A stretch of 49,916 nt of DNA from Candidatus Sericytochromatia bacterium. GTDB taxonomy: Bacteria > Cyanobacteriota > Sericytochromatia > S15B-MN24 > UBA4093. Under the pieces are notes generated by a model. It ran no database searches and was not told where the DNA came from. It saw only the letters and a program-made list of their open reading frames with translations. A program made the translations under genes and the position numbers. How positions within the stretch are numbered: the first letter of the stretch is position 1; the number at the start of each line of letters is the position of its first letter. This document shows positions 39,602 through 49,916 of this stretch, piece after piece. The stretch lies in NCBI GenBank assembly GCA_036676495.1, contig JAKFCT010000100.1:1-49916 (forward strand), read 5' to 3'.

Positions 39602-41181
39602 TGCTCCCGGCCCCCGATTCGCTCTCGCTGCGCGAGCAGCTTGGCCAGCTCATCGCCCCCCTGCTCCCCAGCCACGCCTTCCAGGCCGAACCGGACGCCC
39701 TCGACGTCCAAATCACCGAGCTGCGCCAGGGGCGCTGGGGCGGCTACATCACGATCTTCCCCAAACCCGACCTGACCACGGCCCTGACCCGTCTGCAGGC
39801 CGAGACGGCGATCCCGCTCCTGGTGGCTTGCGACCTCGAACGGGGAGCGGGCCAGCACCTCGACGGGCTCTCGCGCTTTCCCCATATCATGGCCCTCGGG
39901 GCCGCCGAAAGCACGGAGCTGGCTTACCAGCAGGGACGCCTCACCGCGCTCGAAGCCCGCGCGGCCGGCGTCCACTGGGTGCTCGCCCCGGTCGCCGACG
40001 TCAACTCCAACCCCGCGAACCCCATCATCAACGTCAGGGCCTTCGGCGGGGACCCGGACCACGTCTCGGACCTGGTCGAAGCCTTCGTGAAAGGCTGCCA
40101 GGAACACGGAGCGCTCGCCACCGTCAAGCATTTCCCCGGCCATGGCGACACCGACGTGGACTCCCATGCCGCCCTGCCGGTCATCCACGCCAACCGCTTG
40201 CGCCTGGACCTCATCGACCTCCGGCCGTTCCGGCGGGCGATCGCCGCCCGCGTCGCCGCCCTCATGACCGGCCACATCGCCGTCCCCGCGCTCGACCCCA
40301 CCCTGACGCCCGCGACCCTCTCGGAGCCCATCATCACCGGCCTCTTGCGCCGAGACCTGGGCTATGACGGCCTGGTGGTCACGGATGCCTTCAATATGGC
40401 CGGCGTCGCCGACGCCACCAGCGAGGAAGAAGCCGCCATCCAGGCCATCCGCGCCGGCTGCGACGTCATCCTCATGCCCCCGCATCCCCTGCGCGTCCTG
40501 GACGCCCTGGAAGCAGCCGTCCTCGACGGCAGGCTGAGCCGGGAGCGCGTCCTGGAGGCCTGCCGCCGCGTCCTGGCCGCCAAGGCCTCGATCGGCCTCG
40601 ACTCCCCCGAAAAGGCCGCTCCCTCCGAGCGGATCACTCCCCATGCGGAGGCCGCCCGGGTCGCCGAGGCGATCGCCGCCCAGGCCATCACCATGGTGAA
40701 GGGAGACGAACACTGCCTCCCCTTGAACCCGGAGGCCACCGCATGCCTCCTGCTCGACGACGACGGAGACGCGGCCGTCTACGCCCCCTGGGACGAGGCC
40801 CTGGCCACCTACGGCATGACCCGCAGCGTCCTCGATACGAAGTCAGGACCCGCCGAGTACGGCCGGATCATGGCCGAGCTGAAGGGCTGCGAATACTTGC
40901 TGGTGCCGGTCTTTGCTCACGTGAGGGCCTGGAAGGGCCGCATCGGCTTGCTTCCGGAGATGGCCAGCCTCCTCAATCGGCTCGCGGCCGCGGGCACCCG
41001 GATCGTCCTGGTCTCATTCTCGAATCCCTACCTGATTCGCCAGGTCCCGGACGTCTCGGCTTACTTCTGCGCGTACAGCGACCATCCAGCTTGCCAGCGC
41101 ACGGCGCTGGAGGTGGTCATGGGCGATCGCCCCCCTCAGGGCATCCTGCCCGTGGAGCTGAGCGTCACGGTGGACGCCTGA
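39601..41181 (+). CDS. nagZ: GH3 beta-N-acetylglucosaminidase
   Basis: KHFPGHGDTDVDSH signature; DLERG; VTDA. Confidence 0.9.
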   Translation: MLPAPDSLSLREQLGQLIAPLLPSHAFQAEPDALDVQITELRQGRWGGYITIFPKPDLTTALTRLQAETAIPLLVACDLERGAGQHLDGLSRFPHIMALGAAESTELAYQQGRLTALEARAAGVHWVLAPVADVNSNPANPIINVRAFGGDPDHVSDLVEAFVKGCQEHGALATVKHFPGHGDTDVDSHAALPVIHANRLRLDLIDLRPFRRAIAARVAALMTGHIAVPALDPTLTPATLSEPIITGLLRRDLGYDGLVVTDAFNMAGVADATSEEEAAIQAIRAGCDVILMPPHPLRVLDALEAAVLDGRLSRERVLEACRRVLAAKASIGLDSPEKAAPSERITPHAEAARVAEAIAAQAITMVKGDEHCLPLNPEATACLLLDDDGDAAVYAPWDEALATYGMTRSVLDTKSGPAEYGRIMAELKGCEYLLVPVFAHVRAWKGRIGLLPEMASLLNRLAAAGTRIVLVSFSNPYLIRQVPDVSAYFCAYSDHPACQRTALEVVMGDRPPQGILPVELSVTVDA

Positions 41182-41182
41182 C

Positions 41183-42445
41183 ATGCGCCTCCGGCGCCTC
41201 GGGCTGCTTCCGGCCCTGCTCTCCCTGGCCCTGCTCTCGGCCTGCGCGACCCGCTCCGGCACGCTCAGTTTCGCGACCTGGGGTTCGGTCGACGAGATTG
41301 CCCTGCTCAAGCCCTTGCTCGCGGAGTTCACCGCCGAGACCGGGACCGAGGTCGAGCTCGTCCACATCCCCGAGAGCTACTTCCAGAAGCTGCCGATTCT
41401 CTTCGCCTCCCGGCAGGCCCCCGACGTCCTCTTCCTCAACAACATGACCGTTCCCGCCTACGCCGACTCCGGAGCCTTGCTCCCGCTCGATGAGCAGCTC
41501 GCGGCCTCCCCCACCCTCAAAGAGGGGGACTTCTACGCGCAGGGGCTCGAGGCGATGCGCTGGAAGGGCCAGCTCTACGCCGTGCCGCGCGATCTTTCCA
41601 ACCTCGTGGTCTACGTCAACCGCCGCATGTTCGACGAAGCGGGCCTCTCCCTCCCCCCCAAGGACTGGACCATGGCTGAGATGCTCGACGTGGCCCAAAA
41701 ACTCAGCCGCAAGAGCCCGCAGGCCCACGATTCCCAGGCTCGGACGTTCGGCATCTCCTTCGACAAGCGCCCTCTCTTCTGGCTTCCGTATCTCTGGAGC
41801 GAAGGGGGAGACCTCTTCGACGCCGGTTTCACCCGCTCCACCCTCGCCGAGCCCCAGGCCATCGCGGCCATGCAGTTCTACGCGGACCTCGCGCATCGCC
41901 ATCACGTCGCCCCCCGCGAGATCGACACGGGCAACGCGCCGATGGCGCAGCTCTTCGCGCAGGGGAAGCTGGCGATGTTCGTGAGCGGGCGCTGGAGCGT
42001 GCCGGGCTTCCGCAAGTCGCTGACCTTCGACTGGGACGTCCTCCCCTTCCCCACCGGCAAAGCCGGATCCATCGTCGACGTGGACGCTTCCGGCTGGGCG
42101 ATCTCGGCCCAGAGCCCGCGTCAGGACGAGGCCTGGAAGCTGATCTCCCACCTGGCGGGCAAGCATGCGAGCGAAACCTTCTCGAAGGGCGGCCTGATCG
42201 TTCCCGCGCGCCGGGACGTCGCCGAGGCCCCGGCCTTCCTCTCTCTCGGACAGGCCCCGCGCTCCTCCATGACCTTCCTGGATGCGCTCGCCACCGGCCG
42301 GCCTACCCGCACGCCCCCCAACTGGGGCGAGGTGACCACCGTCCTGGACCTCGAACTGGGGCCCCTCTGGCGCGGAGAAGCCTCGGCCTCGCAGGTCCTC
42401 CCCAAGGCCGCGCGCCGCATCGACGAACTCCTGAGGCAGAACTGA
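41183..42445 (+). CDS. Sugar ABC transporter substrate-binding lipoprotein
   Basis: Lipobox LSAC; GQLYAVP, YVNRRMF, FAQGKLAM. Confidence 0.9.
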   Translation: MRLRRLGLLPALLSLALLSACATRSGTLSFATWGSVDEIALLKPLLAEFTAETGTEVELVHIPESYFQKLPILFASRQAPDVLFLNNMTVPAYADSGALLPLDEQLAASPTLKEGDFYAQGLEAMRWKGQLYAVPRDLSNLVVYVNRRMFDEAGLSLPPKDWTMAEMLDVAQKLSRKSPQAHDSQARTFGISFDKRPLFWLPYLWSEGGDLFDAGFTRSTLAEPQAIAAMQFYADLAHRHHVAPREIDTGNAPMAQLFAQGKLAMFVSGRWSVPGFRKSLTFDWDVLPFPTGKAGSIVDVDASGWAISAQSPRQDEAWKLISHLAGKHASETFSKGGLIVPARRDVAEAPAFLSLGQAPRSSMTFLDALATGRPTRTPPNWGEVTTVLDLELGPLWRGEASASQVLPKAARRIDELLRQN

Positions 42446-43341
42446 TGGGCATCGGCAAGTCGCTCTCCAAACTCACCCGCCACGACGGCTTCTGGGCCTT
42501 CCTGCTCGCCGGCCCCACCCTGCTCGGGATTTTGGTCTTCAACCTCATGCCGATCGCCGGATCCTTCTGGCTGAGCCTCACCAAGTGGAATCTGCTGTCG
42601 GCCCCGCGCTTCGTCGGCTTAAAGAACTACCAGGACCTGCTCTCGGATTCCCTGTTTTACCAGGTGATGGGCCAGACCTTCGCCTTCGTGGGCATGGTGG
42701 TCGCCCTCGAGCTCGTCTTCGGCGTCCTCGTCGCCATGGCCCTCAACTCCAAGCTCAAGGGAAGCACGTGGCTGCGAACGGCTTATTTCCTGCCGTTCGT
42801 CACCTCGATGGTCGCCGTCAGCATCGTCTGGGGCTGGGTCTTCGACCCGGCCAACGGCGCCCTCAACATGCTCCTCAAGGCCCTGGGATCCGCTCCCGTC
42901 GCCTGGCTCGCTGACCCGAACATCGCGCTGCCCGCCCTCGCCTTCCTCACCGCCTGGAAGGGCCTGGGCTACGCCATGATGCTGATCTTTGCTGGCTTGC
43001 AGGCCATCCCCGCTCAGTACGACGAGGCGGCCTCCATCGATGGGGCCACCCCCGTGCAGCGCTTCTTCCGCGTCACGCTGCCGCTGCTGAGCCCCACGAT
43101 CTTTTTGGTGGCCGTGCTCTCGACCATCAATGCCTTTCAAGCCTTCGATGCCGTCTACCTGCTCACCGCAGGAGGACCGGCCAATCGCACCACCACCATC
43201 GTTTACTGGCTCTACCAGAACGCCTTCGTCCACTACAACCTCGGTAAGGCCTCGGCGATCGCCTACGTGCTCTTTGCCGTGCTGTTCCTGCTGACGCTGA
43301 TCCAGTGGGGCGTCCGCAAGAAGTGGGTTTACGCGGAATGA
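42445..43341 (+). CDS. Sugar ABC permease (MalF-type)
   Basis: FVGLKNY; EAASIDGA EAA loop. Confidence 0.92.
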   Translation: MGIGKSLSKLTRHDGFWAFLLAGPTLLGILVFNLMPIAGSFWLSLTKWNLLSAPRFVGLKNYQDLLSDSLFYQVMGQTFAFVGMVVALELVFGVLVAMALNSKLKGSTWLRTAYFLPFVTSMVAVSIVWGWVFDPANGALNMLLKALGSAPVAWLADPNIALPALAFLTAWKGLGYAMMLIFAGLQAIPAQYDEAASIDGATPVQRFFRVTLPLLSPTIFLVAVLSTINAFQAFDAVYLLTAGGPANRTTTIVYWLYQNAFVHYNLGKASAIAYVLFAVLFLLTLIQWGVRKKWVYAE

Positions 43342-44150
43342 GAATCGTCGCTTACCTGATCCTGCTCGTCGGAGCCCTGTCGATGGTGGCGCCGTTCGCC
43401 TTGATGCTGGCGACCAGCCTCATGACCGCTGAGCAGGCCATGAGCTATCCCCCGCGCTTCTGGCCCGATCCCGTCGCCTGGGGGAACTATGCCCAGGCCT
43501 TCGTCACGGCACCGTTGTGGAGGTACTTCTGGAACTCGGTGCTGGTCTCGGGCGCGACCGTGCTGGGGCAGGTGCTCACGGGGGCGATGGCCGGCTATGC
43601 GTTCGCCCGCTTGACGTTCAAGGGCCGGAACGTCCTCTTTCTCGCGGTGCTCGCCACGATGATGGTGCCTCCCCAGGTGAACGTGGCGCCCTTGTTCGCG
43701 ATGATGTGTCAGTTCGGCTGGGTCAACACCCACTGGGCGCTCATCGTGCCGGGTCTCTTCGGGGCTTTCGGGGTCTTCCTCCTGCGGCAGTGGTTCCTGA
43801 CCTTCCCCACCGAGCTGGAGGAGGCGGCGAAGCTCGACGGCTGCACCCCCTGGGGCACGTTCTGGCGGATCGCTCTGCCCACGGCGGCCCCGGCCCTGGC
43901 GACCCTGGCCATCTTCGCGTTCATCGCCTCGTGGAACTCGTTCTTCTGGCCGCTGATCGTGACGCATTCGGATGCCGTGCGCACCCTGCCGGTCGGACTC
44001 GCCGCCTACAAGAGCTCCTTCCGGGAGATCACCGACTGGGGCGTCCTCATGGCCGCCACCACGCTTTCAGTCCTGCCCGCCGTGGGCGTCTTCCTCTTGG
44101 GGCAGCGCTACTTCATCCGGGGCATGCTGGCCGGTTCCGTCAAGGAGTAG
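43338..44150 (+). CDS. Sugar ABC permease (MalG-type)
   Basis: ATGA overlap; EEAAKLDG, WNSFFWP, GSVKE. Confidence 0.92.
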   Translation: MRIVAYLILLVGALSMVAPFALMLATSLMTAEQAMSYPPRFWPDPVAWGNYAQAFVTAPLWRYFWNSVLVSGATVLGQVLTGAMAGYAFARLTFKGRNVLFLAVLATMMVPPQVNVAPLFAMMCQFGWVNTHWALIVPGLFGAFGVFLLRQWFLTFPTELEEAAKLDGCTPWGTFWRIALPTAAPALATLAIFAFIASWNSFFWPLIVTHSDAVRTLPVGLAAYKSSFREITDWGVLMAATTLSVLPAVGVFLLGQRYFIRGMLAGSVKE

Positions 44151-44281
44151 GACAGCGCGGCTTCACCGCATATCTTTCAAGGAAAATCCAAGCAAATTCT
44201 GCATGTCTACTAGCCATGACGCCGGTCTTGTGGCATGGTGTGACGGCGTTCTGCTGTTTCGTTTTTATGCGGGAGGGAGAC

Positions 44282-44551
44282 ATGCCTGGAATTTCGACGG
44301 AAGTCCCACAGCGCTTGATGGCACGGGTTCTCGAAGGTGCCGCTCGTAGGCTGGGCGTGGGGATCGACCAAATCCAGGTGGAACGGGTGGAGGCGACGAC
44401 CTGGGGAGACAGCTCCCTGGGGTGTCCACGGCCCGGCATGGTGTACGCCCAAGTGATCACCCCTGGCTATCGCATCGTGGTCAGCAATGGTGGCCGGCGG
44501 CTCGTGTTTCATACCGATAGCCGCGACGATGCCGTGCTTTGTCAGCGATAG
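44282..44551 (+). CDS. Conserved hypothetical protein (W.D.SLGCP..G..Y.Q..TPGY family)
   Basis: GGAGGGAG RBS; recognisable conserved motif. Confidence 0.75.
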   Translation: MPGISTEVPQRLMARVLEGAARRLGVGIDQIQVERVEATTWGDSSLGCPRPGMVYAQVITPGYRIVVSNGGRRLVFHTDSRDDAVLCQR

Positions 44552-44573
44552 GAGGGTTCGGAAGGAGCGGGTC

Positions 44574-44870
44574 ATGATGGATAAGCTGGCCGAAAAGACG
44601 TGGCACGGCATGCCGCAGGAAGCGATCGAGGCAAACCAAGATCGGATTCCGGCGCGCGAGCCGGCGGGGAAGTTCTTCGCTCCCCCGAGCGGCTACCGCT
44701 ATCCGAAGGTCTATTTTTCGGGAAATTATGGCGCCCTCTGCGGCGAGTTCCAGGAATTCTGGCGACAGAACATCACCAAGGACACCGCTGCGCAAGTTGC
44801 CTGGTCGGCATTTGGGCTCTGTGGACATTCGATTCGCTACTACGACGACAACGGCCAGGAAATCGGCTAG
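44574..44870 (+). CDS. Hypothetical protein
   Basis: AAGGAG RBS; followed by a hairpin. Confidence 0.6.
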   Translation: MMDKLAEKTWHGMPQEAIEANQDRIPAREPAGKFFAPPSGYRYPKVYFSGNYGALCGEFQEFWRQNITKDTAAQVAWSAFGLCGHSIRYYDDNGQEIG

Positions 44871-44880
44871 GCAACTAGCT

Positions 44881-44905
44881 TGGGCGGCCCTCCCGGGGCC
44901 GCCCA
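44881..44905. terminator. Hairpin terminator
   Basis: TGGGCGGCCC/GGGCCGCCCA. Confidence 0.6.
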
Positions 44906-44983
44906 TCCTCTATCCATGCGGTTCTCGCTTGACGCTCGCTCTCCAAGTCTCCAGCCACGGGCGTCTCGCATCAGCCGCGGGCG

Positions 44984-45199
44984 CTAATCGCCGGGGCCTG
45001 GCATATGATGCTTAAAGGTCTTCGGCATGGGCATGTGTGATTCAATGCGGGTCTCCTCACGCCGGCGGGCCGCGGCGGCCTCTCGTCTCTGGCGTTCGAG
45101 ACGCTCGTCGTCCTCCCGAGAATCGGGGCCACTTGAGTCAGGGGCGGGTCTCTGTACGGCTTCCGGGCGGGAAGTACTTGGAGATCGGCGCTTTGACAT
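44984..45199 (-). CDS. Possible small charged protein overlapping the 3-prime end of the DUF6338-like gene
   Basis: GGGAGG RBS before ATG 45199; E/R-rich helix. Confidence 0.35.
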   Translation of the reverse strand: MSKRRSPSTSRPEAVQRPAPDSSGPDSREDDERLERQRREAAAARRREETRIESHMPMPKTFKHHMPGPGD

Positions 45200-45866
45200 A
45201 GGCAGGCCTCCCATTTTCTAGGCTGGGGCAGTCCCAAAACGTCACCTGAAGGATCTGGTCGCCCCGAATCCAGACCCCTTGGTTGCCCTCGATCGGCAGC
45301 CAGGTTCCATCGCCGGCGTAGTGGTACTGCCAAAGTAAGGCGATGTCCCGCTCGTCATGGGAAGCAAAAGCCTCCTTGGAATAGATGCCACCGAGGACGT
45401 GATTGTCGGTCAGGAAAATGGTCACGAAGTCAGGACGCTTGTTCTGGCCGATGACGGTGAACTTGTAATCCCATGCGGACTTGCTCAAACCGAGCGGATG
45501 AATCCCGACCAGCTTCCAGAACCAATTTCGCTGGCCTGCCGACATCGATCGGCCGATCAAGACCCCCAGTACCGCGGGGCTGACGAGAGCCACCAGGAGG
45601 ACGGCCAGCGCACCGGCTATCTGGGGATGGGTCTGCACCCACGGCGTGTGGGACAGGGGGAAGAGGATCGGAAACCAAAGGGCCAGGTTCAGACATGCCA
45701 GCGATAGAAAATGCAGGATCCGAGCGGAGGGATCCTTGCTCGTCCGTGGCATGTAGGCCGCAAAGACGGTGTAGAGGATGAAGCCTGGCACCACGAAGAG
45801 CAGCACCGGCAAGATCAGATTGGGATCGATTTGCGGCAAGCTCGGTAATGTGAGGGGATTGGCCAC
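45138..45866 (-). CDS. DUF6338-like membrane protein
   Basis: AGGAGGT RBS; FVVPGFI, three TM segments, SAWDY.F, GVWI...I. Confidence 0.7.
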   Translation of the reverse strand: MANPLTLPSLPQIDPNLILPVLLFVVPGFILYTVFAAYMPRTSKDPSARILHFLSLACLNLALWFPILFPLSHTPWVQTHPQIAGALAVLLVALVSPAVLGVLIGRSMSAGQRNWFWKLVGIHPLGLSKSAWDYKFTVIGQNKRPDFVTIFLTDNHVLGGIYSKEAFASHDERDIALLWQYHYAGDGTWLPIEGNQGVWIRGDQILQVTFWDCPSLENGRPAYVKAPISKYFPPGSRTETRP

Positions 45867-46021
45867 TGTAACCTCCTGGCCGATCGGGCCGAGATGATCC
45901 TAGCGCAATCCCCATGGGTGCAAAGCGCCGCGCGGACGAAATCCGACGCGAATTCTGGCCATTCAAGCCAGCTTTGGGTAGGGCTTGCCCTGCCTACGTC
46001 ACGGCCGAGTGCCCGCTAACG

Positions 46022-48115
46022 TCACGTGCTGGACGGCGTTCCCCGTTCGAGCAAGCTCCTGAGCCGGCCCCTGGCCTGGTTGAGGGCCTCGCGCGCCTCT
46101 GAGGGCGAGAGCCGGGTCGCGTGGATGGCGATCGCCAGCTTCACCGACCCGTCCGCCTGATCGAGCAGCGCTTGGGCCGTGGCCGCGTCGACGCCCGCGA
46201 CCCGCTGGATGATCCGCAGGGCGCGGGCTTGGAGCTTCCGGTTCGAGACCTTCACGTCGACCATCAGGTTGCCGTAGACCTTGCCCAGGAGCACCATGGC
46301 CGTGGTCGAAATCTGGTTGAGCGCGAGCTTGGTGGCCGTCCCCGCCTTGAGGCGGGTCGAGCCCGTCAGGACCTCGGGCCCTACGATCAAAGGCAGCGGG
46401 TGATCGACGTAGTCCAGGGGAGGCAAGGGGTTGCAGGCGATGAGCGCGGTCGTCGCGCCCGCCCTCTTGGCCGTTTTCAAGGCTCCATGGACGTAGGGAG
46501 TGCCGCCGCTCGCCGCGATCCCCACGACCAGGTCTCGGGGCCCGACGCCGCGCGCCTCCAGGTCCGAGCCCCCGGCCTCGGCATCGTCTTCGGCTCCTTC
46601 GATGGCCTGGGTCAGGGCCTTGGATCCCCCGGCAATCAGCCCCTGGAACCATTCCGGAGGAGCCGAGAAGGTCGGCGGAATCTCGGACGCATCCAGGACT
46701 CCAAGCCTTCCGCTCGTCCCCGCCCCCACGTAGAAGACCCTCCCTCCCCCGCGAATCGCCTCGGCAGCCGCAATAGCCACCTGGGCCGTCGCCAGGCTCC
46801 CGGCTGCGACCGCTTCGGCGGTTTGGGCATCTTCGGCGCTCATCAGGGCGGTGATTTCGGGGGCCGTGAGCGTGTCGAGACGCTCGCTGAGCGGATTGGG
46901 GGTCTCGGTGACCGGGTGGGGCTCGTCTACCGTCGCGGGTGCCAGCAGCAAACGCTGGAAGTTCGCACCGGGACTGATCTTGCCGAGGAGGACGGGCCGA
47001 TCGGCCCCGGTCGTCTCGGGGAGGTGGTTGTTCGCGCCGAAGACGGCCTGATAGGCGAGCACGGCGAAGGCCACGGCCTCCTTGGCGTCGGCATCGAAGC
47101 CCCGCGCGTCGCTGGGCAGGACCTGAGCCTCGGGAAGGGCTTGCGCGAGCATGGCCATGAGCGTGCGGTTATGGGCACCGCCGCCGCTCACCAGGATCTC
47201 TCCGGGCAGGACGGGCAGAAAGTCGCGGTAGGCGCGGGCGATGCTCCGGGCCGTCAAGGCGGTGGCGGTGGCGATCGCGTCCTCGGGCGACAGGCCCTGT
47301 GCCAAGGCCTCGTCGTAGCGCGCATCCGCGTAGGCCTGACCGAATTCTTCACGTCCGGTGGACTTCGGCGGCTGCGCGGCAAAGTAGGCATGGCGCAGCC
47401 AGGTTTCCAGCAGGCCTTCATGGACGTGGCCCCGGGCGGCGTAGCGGCCCTCGGGGTCGAAGTGCTCGCGGCCTGCGGTGAAGCGCTCGACGAAGCGGTC
47501 GATGACCATGTTGGCGGGGCCGGTGTCGAAGGCGACCGGTGCCTGTCCGGGGACGAGGGCGGTGACGTTGGCGATGCCTCCCAGGTTCTGGAGGGCCACG
47601 GCAGGGGCCGAGCTGCCGAAGAGCAGCTGATCGACGAAGGGCACGAGCGGCGCTCCCTGGCCCCCCGCAGCGACGTCCGCTTTGCGGAAGTCCGAGACGG
47701 TGGTGATGCCCGTGCGGACGGCGATGAGCGAGCCGTCCCCCAGTTGCAAGGTGGAGGGGGCCTCCCCGCTCGGGCGGTGCCATAGCGTCTGGCCGTGCGA
47801 TCCGATCAGATCCGCGCGCCCCCCCGCTTTCGCCAGGACCGCCTCGGCGGCCTCGGCAAAGAACGCGCCTAGCAGGGTGTCGAGTTCGGCCAAGCGGTCG
47901 ATTCGGCTGGTCTCGGGGGCGAGTTGCTCCTGGATGCGCGCGCGGAGCGTGGCGGGCATGGGCAGGGTGAGGAAGGCTTCCAGACGGAGGTCCAGGCCCG
48001 CGGCGCGCGGGGTGAGGGAGACCAGGGCCGCGTCGCAGCCGTCCAGGGAGGTGCCGGACATCAGGCCGATCACGCGCAGGGGACGGCGGTAGGGGGAGTG
48101 ATTAAGGCGTTGCAT
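46022..48115 (-). CDS. anmK-murQ: Fusion of anhydro-N-acetylmuramic acid kinase and MurNAc-6-phosphate etherase
   Basis: GLMSGTSLDG, SHGQT, GGQGAPL, FDTGPAN, KEAVAFA; then GAGTSGRLG, GSTRLKAGTATK, KVYGNLMVDV. Confidence 0.93.
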   Translation of the reverse strand: MQRLNHSPYRRPLRVIGLMSGTSLDGCDAALVSLTPRAAGLDLRLEAFLTLPMPATLRARIQEQLAPETSRIDRLAELDTLLGAFFAEAAEAVLAKAGGRADLIGSHGQTLWHRPSGEAPSTLQLGDGSLIAVRTGITTVSDFRKADVAAGGQGAPLVPFVDQLLFGSSAPAVALQNLGGIANVTALVPGQAPVAFDTGPANMVIDRFVERFTAGREHFDPEGRYAARGHVHEGLLETWLRHAYFAAQPPKSTGREEFGQAYADARYDEALAQGLSPEDAIATATALTARSIARAYRDFLPVLPGEILVSGGGAHNRTLMAMLAQALPEAQVLPSDARGFDADAKEAVAFAVLAYQAVFGANNHLPETTGADRPVLLGKISPGANFQRLLLAPATVDEPHPVTETPNPLSERLDTLTAPEITALMSAEDAQTAEAVAAGSLATAQVAIAAAEAIRGGGRVFYVGAGTSGRLGVLDASEIPPTFSAPPEWFQGLIAGGSKALTQAIEGAEDDAEAGGSDLEARGVGPRDLVVGIAASGGTPYVHGALKTAKRAGATTALIACNPLPPLDYVDHPLPLIVGPEVLTGSTRLKAGTATKLALNQISTTAMVLLGKVYGNLMVDVKVSNRKLQARALRIIQRVAGVDAATAQALLDQADGSVKLAIAIHATRLSPSEAREALNQARGRLRSLLERGTPSST

Positions 48116-48212
48116 GCCTCGAGTGTACTCCCGGATCGGCCGAGGCTCAAGCGCGTTTCCCCGGGTTGCTTGCGTTCGCGACTATTTTTCGCTTTGAACT
48201 CCAGTTCCGAGG

Positions 48213-48239
48213 TTAAGACCGCTATAATAAGTTTAAGAC
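48213..48239 (+). promoter_or_regulatory. Consensus -10 (TATAAT 48223-48228) flanked by TTAAGAC direct repeats
   Basis: TTAAGAC at 48213 and 48233. Confidence 0.6.
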
Positions 48240-49547
48240 GTTCGAGCTTGCCGCTCGAGCAGGTTTCGTCTCGGAAGGATCGACGTGCCGCAAACCATCA
48301 CGGTGGAGCTCTTCGCTCCGACGCTCGCCAAGCAGGAGACCTTCCGCCAGATGCAGGCGGAATTCAATCGGCTGGCCAATGAGCTGGCGGACGCCTCCTT
48401 GGGCGCCCTGAGCGATCAGGCCTCCGAGATGCTGGAGTGGATGGTGCCGACCGCCTGGCATGGCTCCCTGTACCGGATGGTGCAAGGCCGCCTGAAGACC
48501 ATGGCCATCCGGGGCGAAGGCGCCCGCTTGGCGCGCTTCAAGTCGCACCACCCGGTGGTCTTCGATCCGGCTGCCTGGCAACTGAGCGCGGTCGACGGCA
48601 CCTGGAAGCTCACGATCCCGGTCTTCGGACGGACCGTCTCGGTGCCGATCCTGGTGCCGCCCAGCCAACTGAGCCGTTTGAGCCGCATGCTGGAGGCGGG
48701 GACGCCGCTCGAGGGGCGCCTCTACCAAAAGAAAGGCCGCTGGTACTTTGCGGCCACCTACCTCAACCGTGCCGGAAAGGCCGATGGCAGCCGCCACTGG
48801 GCGTCCTACCGCCCGGTCGGGGTGGATCTCGGGCAACGCATGCTGGCCGTCGCAGTCGACCCCGTGCGCAATCGCCGGATGTTCCTCTCCGGCAAGGAAT
48901 CCCTTTACCATCGCAAGCGCTACGAGCGGATCCTCAAGCGCCTGCGCAAGGCCGGGACCCCGGCTGCACGTCGTGCGGCCAAGCAGGTCGAGGCCAAGTA
49001 TGCACGTTTCCTCGAACACCGCGATCGCCGCGTGGCCAATGCCATCGTCCGGTTCGCGTTGCCGCCCTCCGGGGCTTTGGCCGGCATGCCGCTAACCGCG
49101 CGGCTGGCCAGGCGCGTGGTGATCAAGTTCGAGGACTTCCAAACGGCTCCGTCCACCGCGGAGGTCGCCTCCTACCGTCGCATTCAAGGCCTGGTGGCCC
49201 GTCGAGCAGAGCTCGCGGGTCTCCCGGTCGTGGCGGTCAGTCGGCATGAGACCTCCCAGCGGTGCGCGCAGTGCGGAGTCGTTCAAGAGGGCAATCGCAA
49301 GGGCGGGCGTTATGCCTGCGCTTGCGGCTATCGGTCGCACGCCGATCTCAACGCGGCGCGCAACCTCGCCCAAACGGCGATCCAGTCCGAAGGGATTGGG
49401 ATCGTGCCTGCCGGGTATGAGCCCGGCAGCCAGGCCGTCGGCACGGCTGTATCTCAAGCGGTCCATTGGCTCAAGGGAACATCGGACCACCTGAGAAGCG
49501 CTTTGGCGCATGCCACCCCGCAAATTCCTCCATCCCTTGCAGTTCAA
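48237..49547 (+). mobile_element. Putative non-autonomous IS200/IS605 (IS1341-like, tnpB-only) element or domesticated remnant; boundaries inferred
   Basis: TTTAA then a hairpin at the left; tnpB; structured 3-prime region ending GTTCAA; no tnpA. Confidence 0.45.
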
Positions 49548-49916
49548 ACGCAACTCACACATATGGAGGTAATTCAAATGGCTAGCATCGTTAAGGATCT
49601 CACCGACACCAGCACGAAGTTCGTGACCGGGAGCCTCGACAACCTCAAGACCTACGTGGACCGGACCAGCGACGAGCTGGGCAAGGTCGACGTGGTCGGC
49701 GTGACCCGCCGGGTGCTCGACACCGCCATCGACAACACCAAAGCGGTGGTGAAGATGGCCGCCGAGCCCAACGGCCTCGACTTCTTCGGCAAGGCCAAGG
49801 CCGTCGCCGATGGCTCGCTCGAGGCCGCCAAGGAGGTTGTGAATACCATTTCGGAAGAGGGTAAGAAGACCGATTTCTTCGGGATGGCGACCCGCATGAC
49901 GATGGATTCGCTCTCG
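48285..49916 (+). CDS. tnpB: TnpB-family RNA-guided nuclease fused in frame to a helical repeat protein (at least 544 codons, open at the window end)
   Basis: Manual translation from GTG 48285 (AAGGA RBS): VGVDLG (D181), IKFED (E283), TSQRCAQC...CAC, HADLNAARNL (D354); no stop codon to 49916. Confidence 0.88.
   Translation, partial: MPQTITVELFAPTLAKQETFRQMQAEFNRLANELADASLGALSDQASEMLEWMVPTAWHGSLYRMVQGRLKTMAIRGEGARLARFKSHHPVVFDPAAWQLSAVDGTWKLTIPVFGRTVSVPILVPPSQLSRLSRMLEAGTPLEGRLYQKKGRWYFAATYLNRAGKADGSRHWASYRPVGVDLGQRMLAVAVDPVRNRRMFLSGKESLYHRKRYERILKRLRKAGTPAARRAAKQVEAKYARFLEHRDRRVANAIVRFALPPSGALAGMPLTARLARRVVIKFEDFQTAPSTAEVASYRRIQGLVARRAELAGLPVVAVSRHETSQRCAQCGVVQEGNRKGGRYACACGYRSHADLNAARNLAQTAIQSEGIGIVPAGYEPGSQAVGTAVSQAVHWLKGTSDHLRSALAHATPQIPPSLAVQTQLTHMEVIQMASIVKDLTDTSTKFVTGSLDNLKTYVDRTSDELGKVDVVGVTRRVLDTAIDNTKAVVKMAAEPNGLDFFGKAKAVADGSLEAAKEVVNTISEEGKKTDFFGMATRMTMDSLS
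49390..49567 (+). ncRNA. Candidate omegaRNA-like scaffold plus guide
   Basis: Closing stem AAGGGAT/ATCCCTT encloses several hairpins; followed by GTTCAA; lies at the 3-prime end of the tnpB domain. Confidence 0.4.
49578..49916 (+). CDS. Amphipathic 30-31-aa helical repeat protein (phasin/apolipoprotein-like), partial; internal start in the tnpB frame
   Basis: GGAGGT RBS 7 nt before ATG; strong codon bias resumes; repeats begin DLTD, DVVG, DFFG, DFFG. Confidence 0.75.
   Translation, partial: MASIVKDLTDTSTKFVTGSLDNLKTYVDRTSDELGKVDVVGVTRRVLDTAIDNTKAVVKMAAEPNGLDFFGKAKAVADGSLEAAKEVVNTISEEGKKTDFFGMATRMTMDSLS

Follow-up and report, generated by a model that had tools for sequence, protein, structure and literature searches.

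The locus described here raises the question of why a TnpB-like nuclease gene should have no stop codon and run in frame into a downstream gene that has a start of its own. It lies at the 3′ end of a stretch of 49,916 nucleotides, the window, which is one entire contig (C100; JAKFCT010000100.1) of the genome assembly of a Candidatus Sericytochromatia bacterium (GCA_036676495.1; 4.14 Mb, 66% GC, 106 contigs, 92% complete); the Sericytochromatia are non-photosynthetic relatives of cyanobacteria. On the forward strand, 544 codons without a single stop are read from GTG 48285 up to the last base of the window (48285..49916), as an earlier note made from this DNA alone had described. The 5′ end of contig C103 is an exact copy of the final 123 bases of the window and supplies the stop that the note had proposed to seek by extending the contig, a TAG on C103 (L001 283-285), 162 bases beyond the window and followed by a G+C hairpin and a T-run. 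The complete frame has 431 + 166 = 597 codons, 544 of them in the window, and encodes successively a TnpB/Cas12f-like nuclease core (residues 1-365, 48285..49379), a stretch of about 66 codons overlapped by a structured RNA, and a protein of 166 amino acids named X here. The start of X could be read directly where the note had placed it: a Shine-Dalgarno sequence, GGAGGT, at 49565-49570, a 7-nt spacer and ATG 49578-49580, which is Met432 of the long frame (49565..49580, forward strand). The first 113 of the 166 codons of X are in the window (49578..49916) and the rest on C103 (L001 124-285). On balance we favour the view that the TnpB has been domesticated and is produced exclusively in fusion with X, while a leader-X mRNA gives rise to free X.

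The stop-less frame is preserved in relatives. Within the order (families f1 to f4), 25 of the 26 other genomes carry X, as against 0 of 20 from the remaining families of the class, and a TnpB-like gene lies directly upstream of X in every f1 and f4 genome with an assembled junction. These are 17 loci (the window's own and those of G001-G009, G012, G014, G016, G018, G020, G024 and G026), the TnpB parts of which are 31 to 91% identical to that of the window. All 17 junctions are devoid of a TnpB stop and have X in the same phase, giving orthologous stop-free frames of 524-692 amino acids. The distance from RuvC-III to the ATG of X amounts to 204, 213, 216, 228, 234 or 240 nt, and in a nucleotide alignment blind to codons all gap blocks of the 17 intact loci are multiples of 3; one hairpin site has three length states or more and the spacer site four or more, again all multiples of 3. 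The indels in multiples of 3 and the open linker are what the earlier note had proposed to look for among relatives. Between RuvC-III and the ATG, 11 loci contain 0 stops in frame 0, whereas frames +1 and +2 contain 13 each. At least about eight separate indel events, every one of them phase-preserving, are hard to obtain without selection on the frame. Of the 27 proteins that reached E ≤ 0.001 in a database of 5.8 billion, the top 23 (38-97% identity) have without exception the fused length, 530-637 amino acids, and the remaining four are ordinary TnpBs of 259-425 amino acids with 28-39% identity.

The TnpB-like gene is also fixed in its place. No other contig of the genome encodes a relative of the TnpB part, no ORF for TnpA lies between anmK-murQ and X, and the divergent neighbour, a 697-aa fusion of AnmK and an SIS (MurQ-like) protein (46022..48115, reverse strand; Pfam AnmK, E 2.6e-112, plus SIS domains), serves as a synteny anchor: by tblastn, the AnmK-MurQ gene is directly upstream of the TnpB-like gene in genera g1, g2, g3, g15, g9 and g7. 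Maximum-likelihood trees built for the core and for X each set the two families apart, with the members of a genus grouped. The core shows dN/dS values (ratio of non-synonymous to synonymous rates; Nei-Gojobori) of 0.12-0.37 in 14 of 14 pairs, and X values of 0.07-0.24 in 11 of the 12 pairs that could be scored, the twelfth being a near-identical pair with a dS of 0.007. Taken together, the single copy, the shared site, the selection on the core and the congruent trees bear out the domestication that the note had proposed, and the gene is best read as immobilised, vertically inherited and domesticated rather than mobile. Since the core is under purifying selection and no stop precedes that of X, the selected form of the nuclease would begin as TnpB-linker-X.

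The identity of the core, which the note had called TnpB-like over residues ~1-365, is supported by Pfam, NCBIfam, PDB profile and Foldseek searches alike. Pfam Cas12f1-like_TNB (PF07282) matches residues 297-361 (E 1.7e-15, 57.3 bits against a cut-off of 26.3). NCBIfam guided_TnpB matches residues 137-363 (E 1.2e-21), over profile positions 159-388 only and with 77.4 bits, under the curated cut-off of 100, and the NCBIfam Cas12f2 score of 53 is far under its cut-off of 450; the core is a divergent rather than a typical member of the TnpB/Cas12f superfamily. The closest solved relative is AsCas12f (PDB profile E 9.2e-27, Foldseek E 4.6e-16), ahead of ISDra2 TnpB (8h1j; profile E 1.8e-4, Foldseek E 1.6e-9). 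With the model of all 597 residues Foldseek matched 53 PDB entries with E ≤ 0.001, and the 50 best are all Cas12, TnpB or Fanzor; the TM-scores are low (0.2-0.35) because the model includes the disordered linker and the X part. By residue mapping in the core, the RuvC triad consists of D181 (48825-48827), E283 (49131-49133) and D354 (49344-49346), and the zinc finger of C327, C330, C345 and C347 (49263-49325), all on the forward strand. Neither the triad nor any of the four cysteines varies among the 31 full-length orthologues, and the D-E-D triad is retained in 16 of the 17 DNA loci, the exception being G014.

The stretch of about 66 codons between core and X had been described in the note as a linker with atypical codon usage. 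The codon usage is indeed atypical, with a G+C content at third codon positions (GC3) of 0.59 and an effective number of codons (ENC) of 61, against a GC3 of 0.83 for the core and 0.90 for X, and the in-frame character of the stretch is kept; as a protein linker it does not stand, being mainly a covarying, omegaRNA-like RNA. This RNA, of about 160 nt, occupies 49379..49539 on the forward strand and overlaps codons 366-419. It comprises helices at 49379-49403 and 49408-49429, an invariant hairpin at 49433-49448 and two more covarying helices, and two pseudoknots are proposed, pairing GGCA (49440-49443) with TGCC (49511-49514) and AAGGG (49473-49477) with CCCTT (49534-49538), the latter backed by one double change, in g9. 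In an alignment of 18 sequences, invariant blocks stand between variable stems: CAGGCCG..GGCACGGCTG, AAGGG, GAAG, GCATGCC and CCCTT. RNAalifold predicted 37 pairs, 25 of them with compensatory changes. When the named structure and its two pseudoknots were counted, 96.4% of the cells were paired, as against 34-45% with the partners slid by 1-3 columns, and double changes were seen in 18 of 32 pairs; none of 500 shuffles reached the observed values.

With a covariance model of the element (R1), each of 18 genomes yields a single strong match (E ≤ 6.6e-30), in every case at the TnpB-X locus; elsewhere, all f3 genomes included, matches are at chance level only. Since R1 is absent from the f3 genomes, in which X stands alone, the RNA arrived together with the TnpB part rather than with X. 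When the window is compared with a relative from its own genus, the stretch that follows RuvC-III is conserved in nucleotides far beyond the core, synonymous sites included, and one compensatory hairpin change is visible. In the Nei-Gojobori comparisons dS is 0.05-0.56 for the linker and 0.10-0.30 for X, compared with 0.25-1.24 for the core in the same pairs. The strong covariation and the depressed synonymous rate indicate that the region between core and X evolves as RNA. In TnpB systems the omegaRNA ordinarily overlaps the gene at its 3′ end; the departure here lies in the lack of a stop and in the frame that carries on into X. The scaffold is omegaRNA-like by position, and a guide role and binding by the core would be putative properties of it.

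Between the scaffold and the Shine-Dalgarno sequence lies a variable spacer, 25 nt in the window (49540..49564, forward strand), at the position that the guide takes in a canonical omegaRNA; a guide role is conceivable on that ground. The spacer is identical within a genus and unalignable across genera, 16-36 nt long, relatively AT-rich and fast-evolving. Sequestration of the Shine-Dalgarno sequence by an upstream anti-Shine-Dalgarno sequence was considered and rejected: minimum free energy folds pair it in every lineage, but shuffled upstream sequence does so equally, and its pairing differed from that with shuffled sequence at p < 0.05 in only one of nine lineages.

X keeps its own start in every lineage, as the earlier note had supposed for the window: GGAG or GAGG precedes its ATG by 6-9 nt throughout the 18 aligned loci, and also in the stand-alone genes of the sister family f3. 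There, X occurs alone, with 24-36% identity, its own Shine-Dalgarno sequence and different neighbours, and is accompanied neither by TnpB nor by the RNA element. The note's helical repeat is recovered as four predicted helices and four mutually similar units of about 32 amino acids (all six unit comparisons outscore 99% or more of 500 shuffles); its description of the gene as strongly biased was overstated, the ENC of 34 lying at the 38th percentile among 1968 long ORFs of the genome. At the C-terminus the motif (P)xVTRVEIE, (P)QVTRVEIE in the window, is near-invariant and lost only in g3. In the X of g3, VTRVEIE is replaced by an Ala/Glu/Lys-rich tail, a single event, and PhaC_N is found in 0 of the 3 g3 genomes. 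A profile search of 1.84 billion representative proteins found 20 proteins, all of which, except three weak long ones, belong to the small family of X. The neighbours of X in a language-model comparison are phasin-like clusters at 0.90-0.92, scores that arise by chance in 4-10% of cases; a phasin-like coat protein is therefore only a lead. The signature of a class III polyhydroxyalkanoate (PHA) synthase, PhaC_N, occurs in 36 of the 47 class genomes, the present one among them, so that a PHA granule is a plausible substrate of X; PhaC is class-wide, whereas X is restricted to the order. Like phasins and other amphipathic helical-repeat coat proteins, X is small and all-helical with internal repeats; unlike them, it matches no phasin profile of Pfam or NCBIfam and is found in one order only. 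A prediction of a complex of two copies of X (score 0.00, mark 0.42) gave no evidence either way.

Taking these features together, we propose the following model. Two products are predicted, a TnpB-linker-X fusion of about 65 kDa and free X from its own start. For ribosomes on the TnpB frame the fusion would be the sole full-length product, while free X would come from the leader-X mRNA and would probably be far more abundant. By analogy with TnpB, the protein might bind the scaffold and cut the tnpB-X co-transcript just 5′ of it with its RuvC site; the cut would end synthesis of the protein itself and leave an X mRNA with the scaffold as its 5′ leader, possibly protein-bound. A precedent is AmaTnpB, the RuvC site of which, according to Nety (2023), cuts its own mRNA 5′ of the omegaRNA and leaves the 3′ sequence untrimmed. 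Through its X moiety, the RNA-guided module would be brought to the sites at which X assembles.

Three RNA sequencing runs from three studies (X6, X8 and X9) bear on this. Each contains one contig that starts inside the RNA element (at 49388, 49419 and 49425), runs through X past the end of the window, is 617-747 nt long and differs from the window at 3-8 positions. This is the pattern expected if an abundant X mRNA carries the scaffold as leader, and is only a hint of it; no RNA contig over the nuclease core was found in these three runs, a missing cover that does not amount to a silent core. In all, 20 public runs contain part of the stretch. Besides the probable source there are about 19, with soil, compost, rhizosphere, sediment, wastewater and seawater labels, and their share of the sampled words is near-constant at 0.20-0.26. 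In X6, X8 and X9 this share consists of the scaffold-plus-X piece of about 530 nt (49388-49916) only, which points to a nucleotide conservation unusually high beside the adjacent core.

Several observations weigh against the fusion as a selected, RNA-guided nuclease. The RNA contigs are assembled from close relatives and cannot show true 5′ ends or expression levels, which makes them a weak hint. Parts of the nuclease can be dispensed with in some lineages. In G014 (L037, G014:C4, genus g7) the RuvC D, E and D are missing and the zinc finger has been deleted in frame (about 12 codons); this locus, a natural nuclease-dead variant, nonetheless retains a frame of 590 codons that extends into X, as well as the RNA element (R1 E 7.6e-37). 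A REC-like helical insert of about 70-80 residues has been deleted in g3 (L012, L013, L022) and in g15 (L009), which are separate lineages, and the f2 genome G010 retains a 180-codon remnant lacking the zinc finger and RuvC-III, still in frame; a 396-aa database protein related to that of G010 has kept the RuvC part and is fused to X. The linker peptide shows no clear purifying selection, with dN/dS of 0.06-1.41 that reaches 1.1-1.4 in two pairs. The argument for the fusion is one from the frame and from the avoidance of stops, and related lineages do not provide independent counts.

A second group of such points concerns the RNA, its would-be targets and X. Rfam gave no family at the gathering score in the window and L001, and only a chance-level match for 49200-49700 at E ≤ 10. 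In the genome itself, 92% complete, the longest match to 49501-49600 is 15 nt, within chance expectation; a 16-nt spacer searched with at most two mismatches in G008 and G005 matches only itself; the extra spacer matches in g1 are at chance level, a reversed control matching as well; no match above chance occurs in G008, G005, G001 or G002; and in 10 loci no match of the spacer to the upstream or promoter region of its own gene was found. The X family has no Pfam match at E ≤ 10 and no NCBIfam match at E ≤ 1, phasin profiles included, and a PDB profile search with X returned nothing under E 0.05. The AlphaFold2 model of X, with four helices and a disordered tail, is poor, at a predicted local distance difference test score (pLDDT) of 50.

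The main rival, which we hold to be rather unlikely, is an explanation in which the fusion is a tolerated by-product. Selection would act on a TnpB-like protein with its RNA and, separately, on X with a structured leader; the frame would be open so that ribosomes can pass through the scaffold, for instance in order to remodel it or so as not to terminate within it, and the fusion would be cleaved in the linker or degraded. The linker fits this, with dN/dS near or above 1 in several pairs at depressed dS, a constraint that is one on RNA and not on protein, and with a peptide that is predicted to be disordered (pLDDT < 50 at residues 369-454). The alternative frames contain 0-4 stops per locus, so that frameshifts end translation inside the scaffold; beyond the ATG of X frame 0 is open by necessity; and all lineages descend from a single ancestor, whereby the shared frame is partly historical. 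However, the spacer of 16-36 nt could take a stop without damage to the scaffold, and none has arisen in it in 8 genus-level lineages or 23 database clusters, while its four or more length states are all multiples of 3. Even the nuclease-dead G014 lost its zinc finger in frame and keeps the long frame. A separate stop for the nuclease is found nowhere, and any nuclease starts as a fusion. We prefer the domesticated TnpB made as TnpB-X.

Starting from that preferred reading, a further step can be envisaged, which we put forward as doubtful. The omegaRNA would be the leader of a host mRNA and the nuclease a covalent part of the protein that this mRNA encodes; the ribonucleoprotein (RNP), with the 5′ untranslated region (UTR) of X as a fixed 'guide', would be sent by its X moiety to an X-coated structure such as a storage granule or the nucleoid. 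The protospacer-adjacent motif (PAM) of AsCas12f is NTTR. As an extension, the invariant CCCTT(G/A) of the scaffold that precedes the guide DNA resembles an NTTR PAM; were this borne out, the RNP might recognise its own locus and adjust the transcription of X. If true, the locus would be a self-contained RNA-guided module for autoregulation and localisation with an active nuclease.

Improbable is a selfish, transposase-less TnpB held at one site, a homing or addiction module that cuts alleles without the insertion, in which case the missing stop would be incidental. This would follow the canonical logic of TnpB as given by Wiegand 2023 and by review PMC13565253; the retained catalytic triad agrees with it, as does the would-be guide, which in 5 genomes matches only its own flank, the X 5′ UTR. 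Against it stand the one copy per genome at one syntenic site over two families, with no TnpA and no further copies found, the trees congruent with taxonomy, and the purifying selection on the core over a deep divergence, to about 31-45% identity; the constraints on frame and stops are left unexplained by homing. A mobile IS200/IS605 or IS607 element was rejected likewise, there being one copy, the same site in six genera and no TnpA ORF at the locus. An artefact or a decaying pseudogene, in which a stop was lost through faulty assembly or base calling, or in which chance has left the frame open at 66% GC, might be suspected since the window ends within X, several assemblies break in that gene and high GC lowers the frequency of stops, but it is refuted for practical purposes by contigs from the probable source run that match the entire stretch at 100% identity and bridge the junction (with no sign of the assembly error that the earlier note had left to be checked), by the same architecture in 17 independent assemblies and 23 database clusters, by the stops present in alternative frames and by dN/dS well below 1.

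The fates of TnpB known so far are mobile homing nucleases, Cas12 effectors and separate nuclease-dead regulators (TldR, sigma-associated dCas12f). The canonical TnpBs of IS200/IS605 and IS607 share with the locus the D-E-D triad, the zinc-finger TNB domain and a structured RNA that overlaps the ORF at its 3′ end and reaches past it, and 5′ processing of the omegaRNA, as described by Nety (2023), would fit RNA contigs that start near the scaffold and run on downstream. They differ in that the locus has no TnpA, is a single, syntenic and immobile copy, and has a stop-less ORF fused to a host gene, with an mRNA as the 3′ flank of its RNA. Cas12f (type V-F), represented by AsCas12f, is closest by profile and fold and has a core of similar size, whereas here no CRISPR array lies within about 6-10 kb (no tandem or spaced direct repeats in window positions 40000-49916 or in L001 1-6000) and the guide-like RNA is 3′ of the gene, as in an omegaRNA. 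TldRs, as presented by Wiegand et al. and Xiao 2026, are domesticated TnpB homologues with an adjacent guide-like RNA and a conserved association with host genes, which likens them to the locus; they are nuclease-dead and act in trans on promoters, whereas no trans target was found here. Because all 31 full-length orthologues have kept the catalytic triad, the locus is not TldR-like. A translational fusion does not appear in the text of the TldR preprint, where 'fused', 'in-frame' and 'stop codon' do not occur.

The nearest parallels are the exapted TnpBs of Altae-Tran et al. 2023, whose main text describes Sigma-, SpoIIE-, flagellin-, DppD- and RHH/MazE-TnpB and non-mobile clades with a seemingly active RuvC. 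Like the locus, these are non-mobile and fixed, with an apparently active RuvC and a tie to a specific neighbour gene; unlike it, none of the main-text cases is fused in frame to its neighbour, and none has the omegaRNA region as the leader of that neighbour. The word 'Cyanobacteri' occurs 0 times in that main text, and the clade may figure in supplementary Table S5, a list of the non-mobile active clades, with no fusion noted. A 2026 review gives Cas12 and TldR as the domesticated forms of TnpB. A literature search gave no paper joining TnpB with Sericytochromatia, and for TnpB with phasin nothing relevant by title or the start of the abstract. The locus is thus an exapted TnpB, in which the conserved covalent fusion to a host protein and the use of an omegaRNA-like scaffold as mRNA leader appear to be undescribed.

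An apparently active TnpB/Cas12f-like enzyme has been retained through the whole history of two bacterial families. To our knowledge, nuclease-effector fusions have so far been engineered only; if confirmed, the TnpB-X frame would be a natural precedent for them and a new means of linking an RNA-guided module with both a cellular structure and the expression of one gene. It would also offer a compact Cas12f-like enzyme of about 365 amino acids with a defined scaffold of about 160 nt, from a barely studied phylum. Such fused frames are hidden by public annotation: the source record of one database entry, P0025 (a fused frame of 530 aa), gives it the label 'transposase', and the other 22 entries are nameless. 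X is unrecognised as a separate gene in the fused records, and X proteins of 166-171 aa are called separately elsewhere.

Several independent assemblies break within X. The contig of the window stops at codon 113 of X, with the 123-base overlap with the next contig; the assembly of G002 (L023, L021/L040) breaks after codon 23 and resumes at codon 73; that of G009 (L022) stops at codon 80; and that of G022 (L049) carries just the last ~24 codons. Leader and X are probably nearly identical among co-occurring strains with differing TnpB parts, which would split the assembly graph. In the probable source run, one contig of 696 nt spans 49377-49916 and extends 156 nt past the end of the window, and the word depth is 34.5 over 49377-49916 versus 18.7 over 48285-48764.

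Upstream, the intergenic region of 169 nt before the TnpB-like gene contains a hexamer resembling a −10 element, TATAAT (48223..48228, forward strand), a putative promoter; GCTATAAT at the TATAAT region aligns among the g1, g4 and g2 loci. A strict sigma-70 scan of 48050-49916 gave 0 sites, with no full −35/−10 promoter. The AnmK/SIS fusion (MurQ/GKRP type) on the other side of this region, a protein of peptidoglycan recycling, has 44-76% identity beside the locus in the six genera. Downstream, the adjoining contig encodes an ODP-family protein of metallo-beta-lactamase fold (L001 1302-2087, forward strand) and an AAA/R3H protein with a PTPase-like domain (L001 3544-5091, reverse strand), which we take to be Ycf45-like. 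Both neighbours are consistent with a cyanobacteria-related affiliation.

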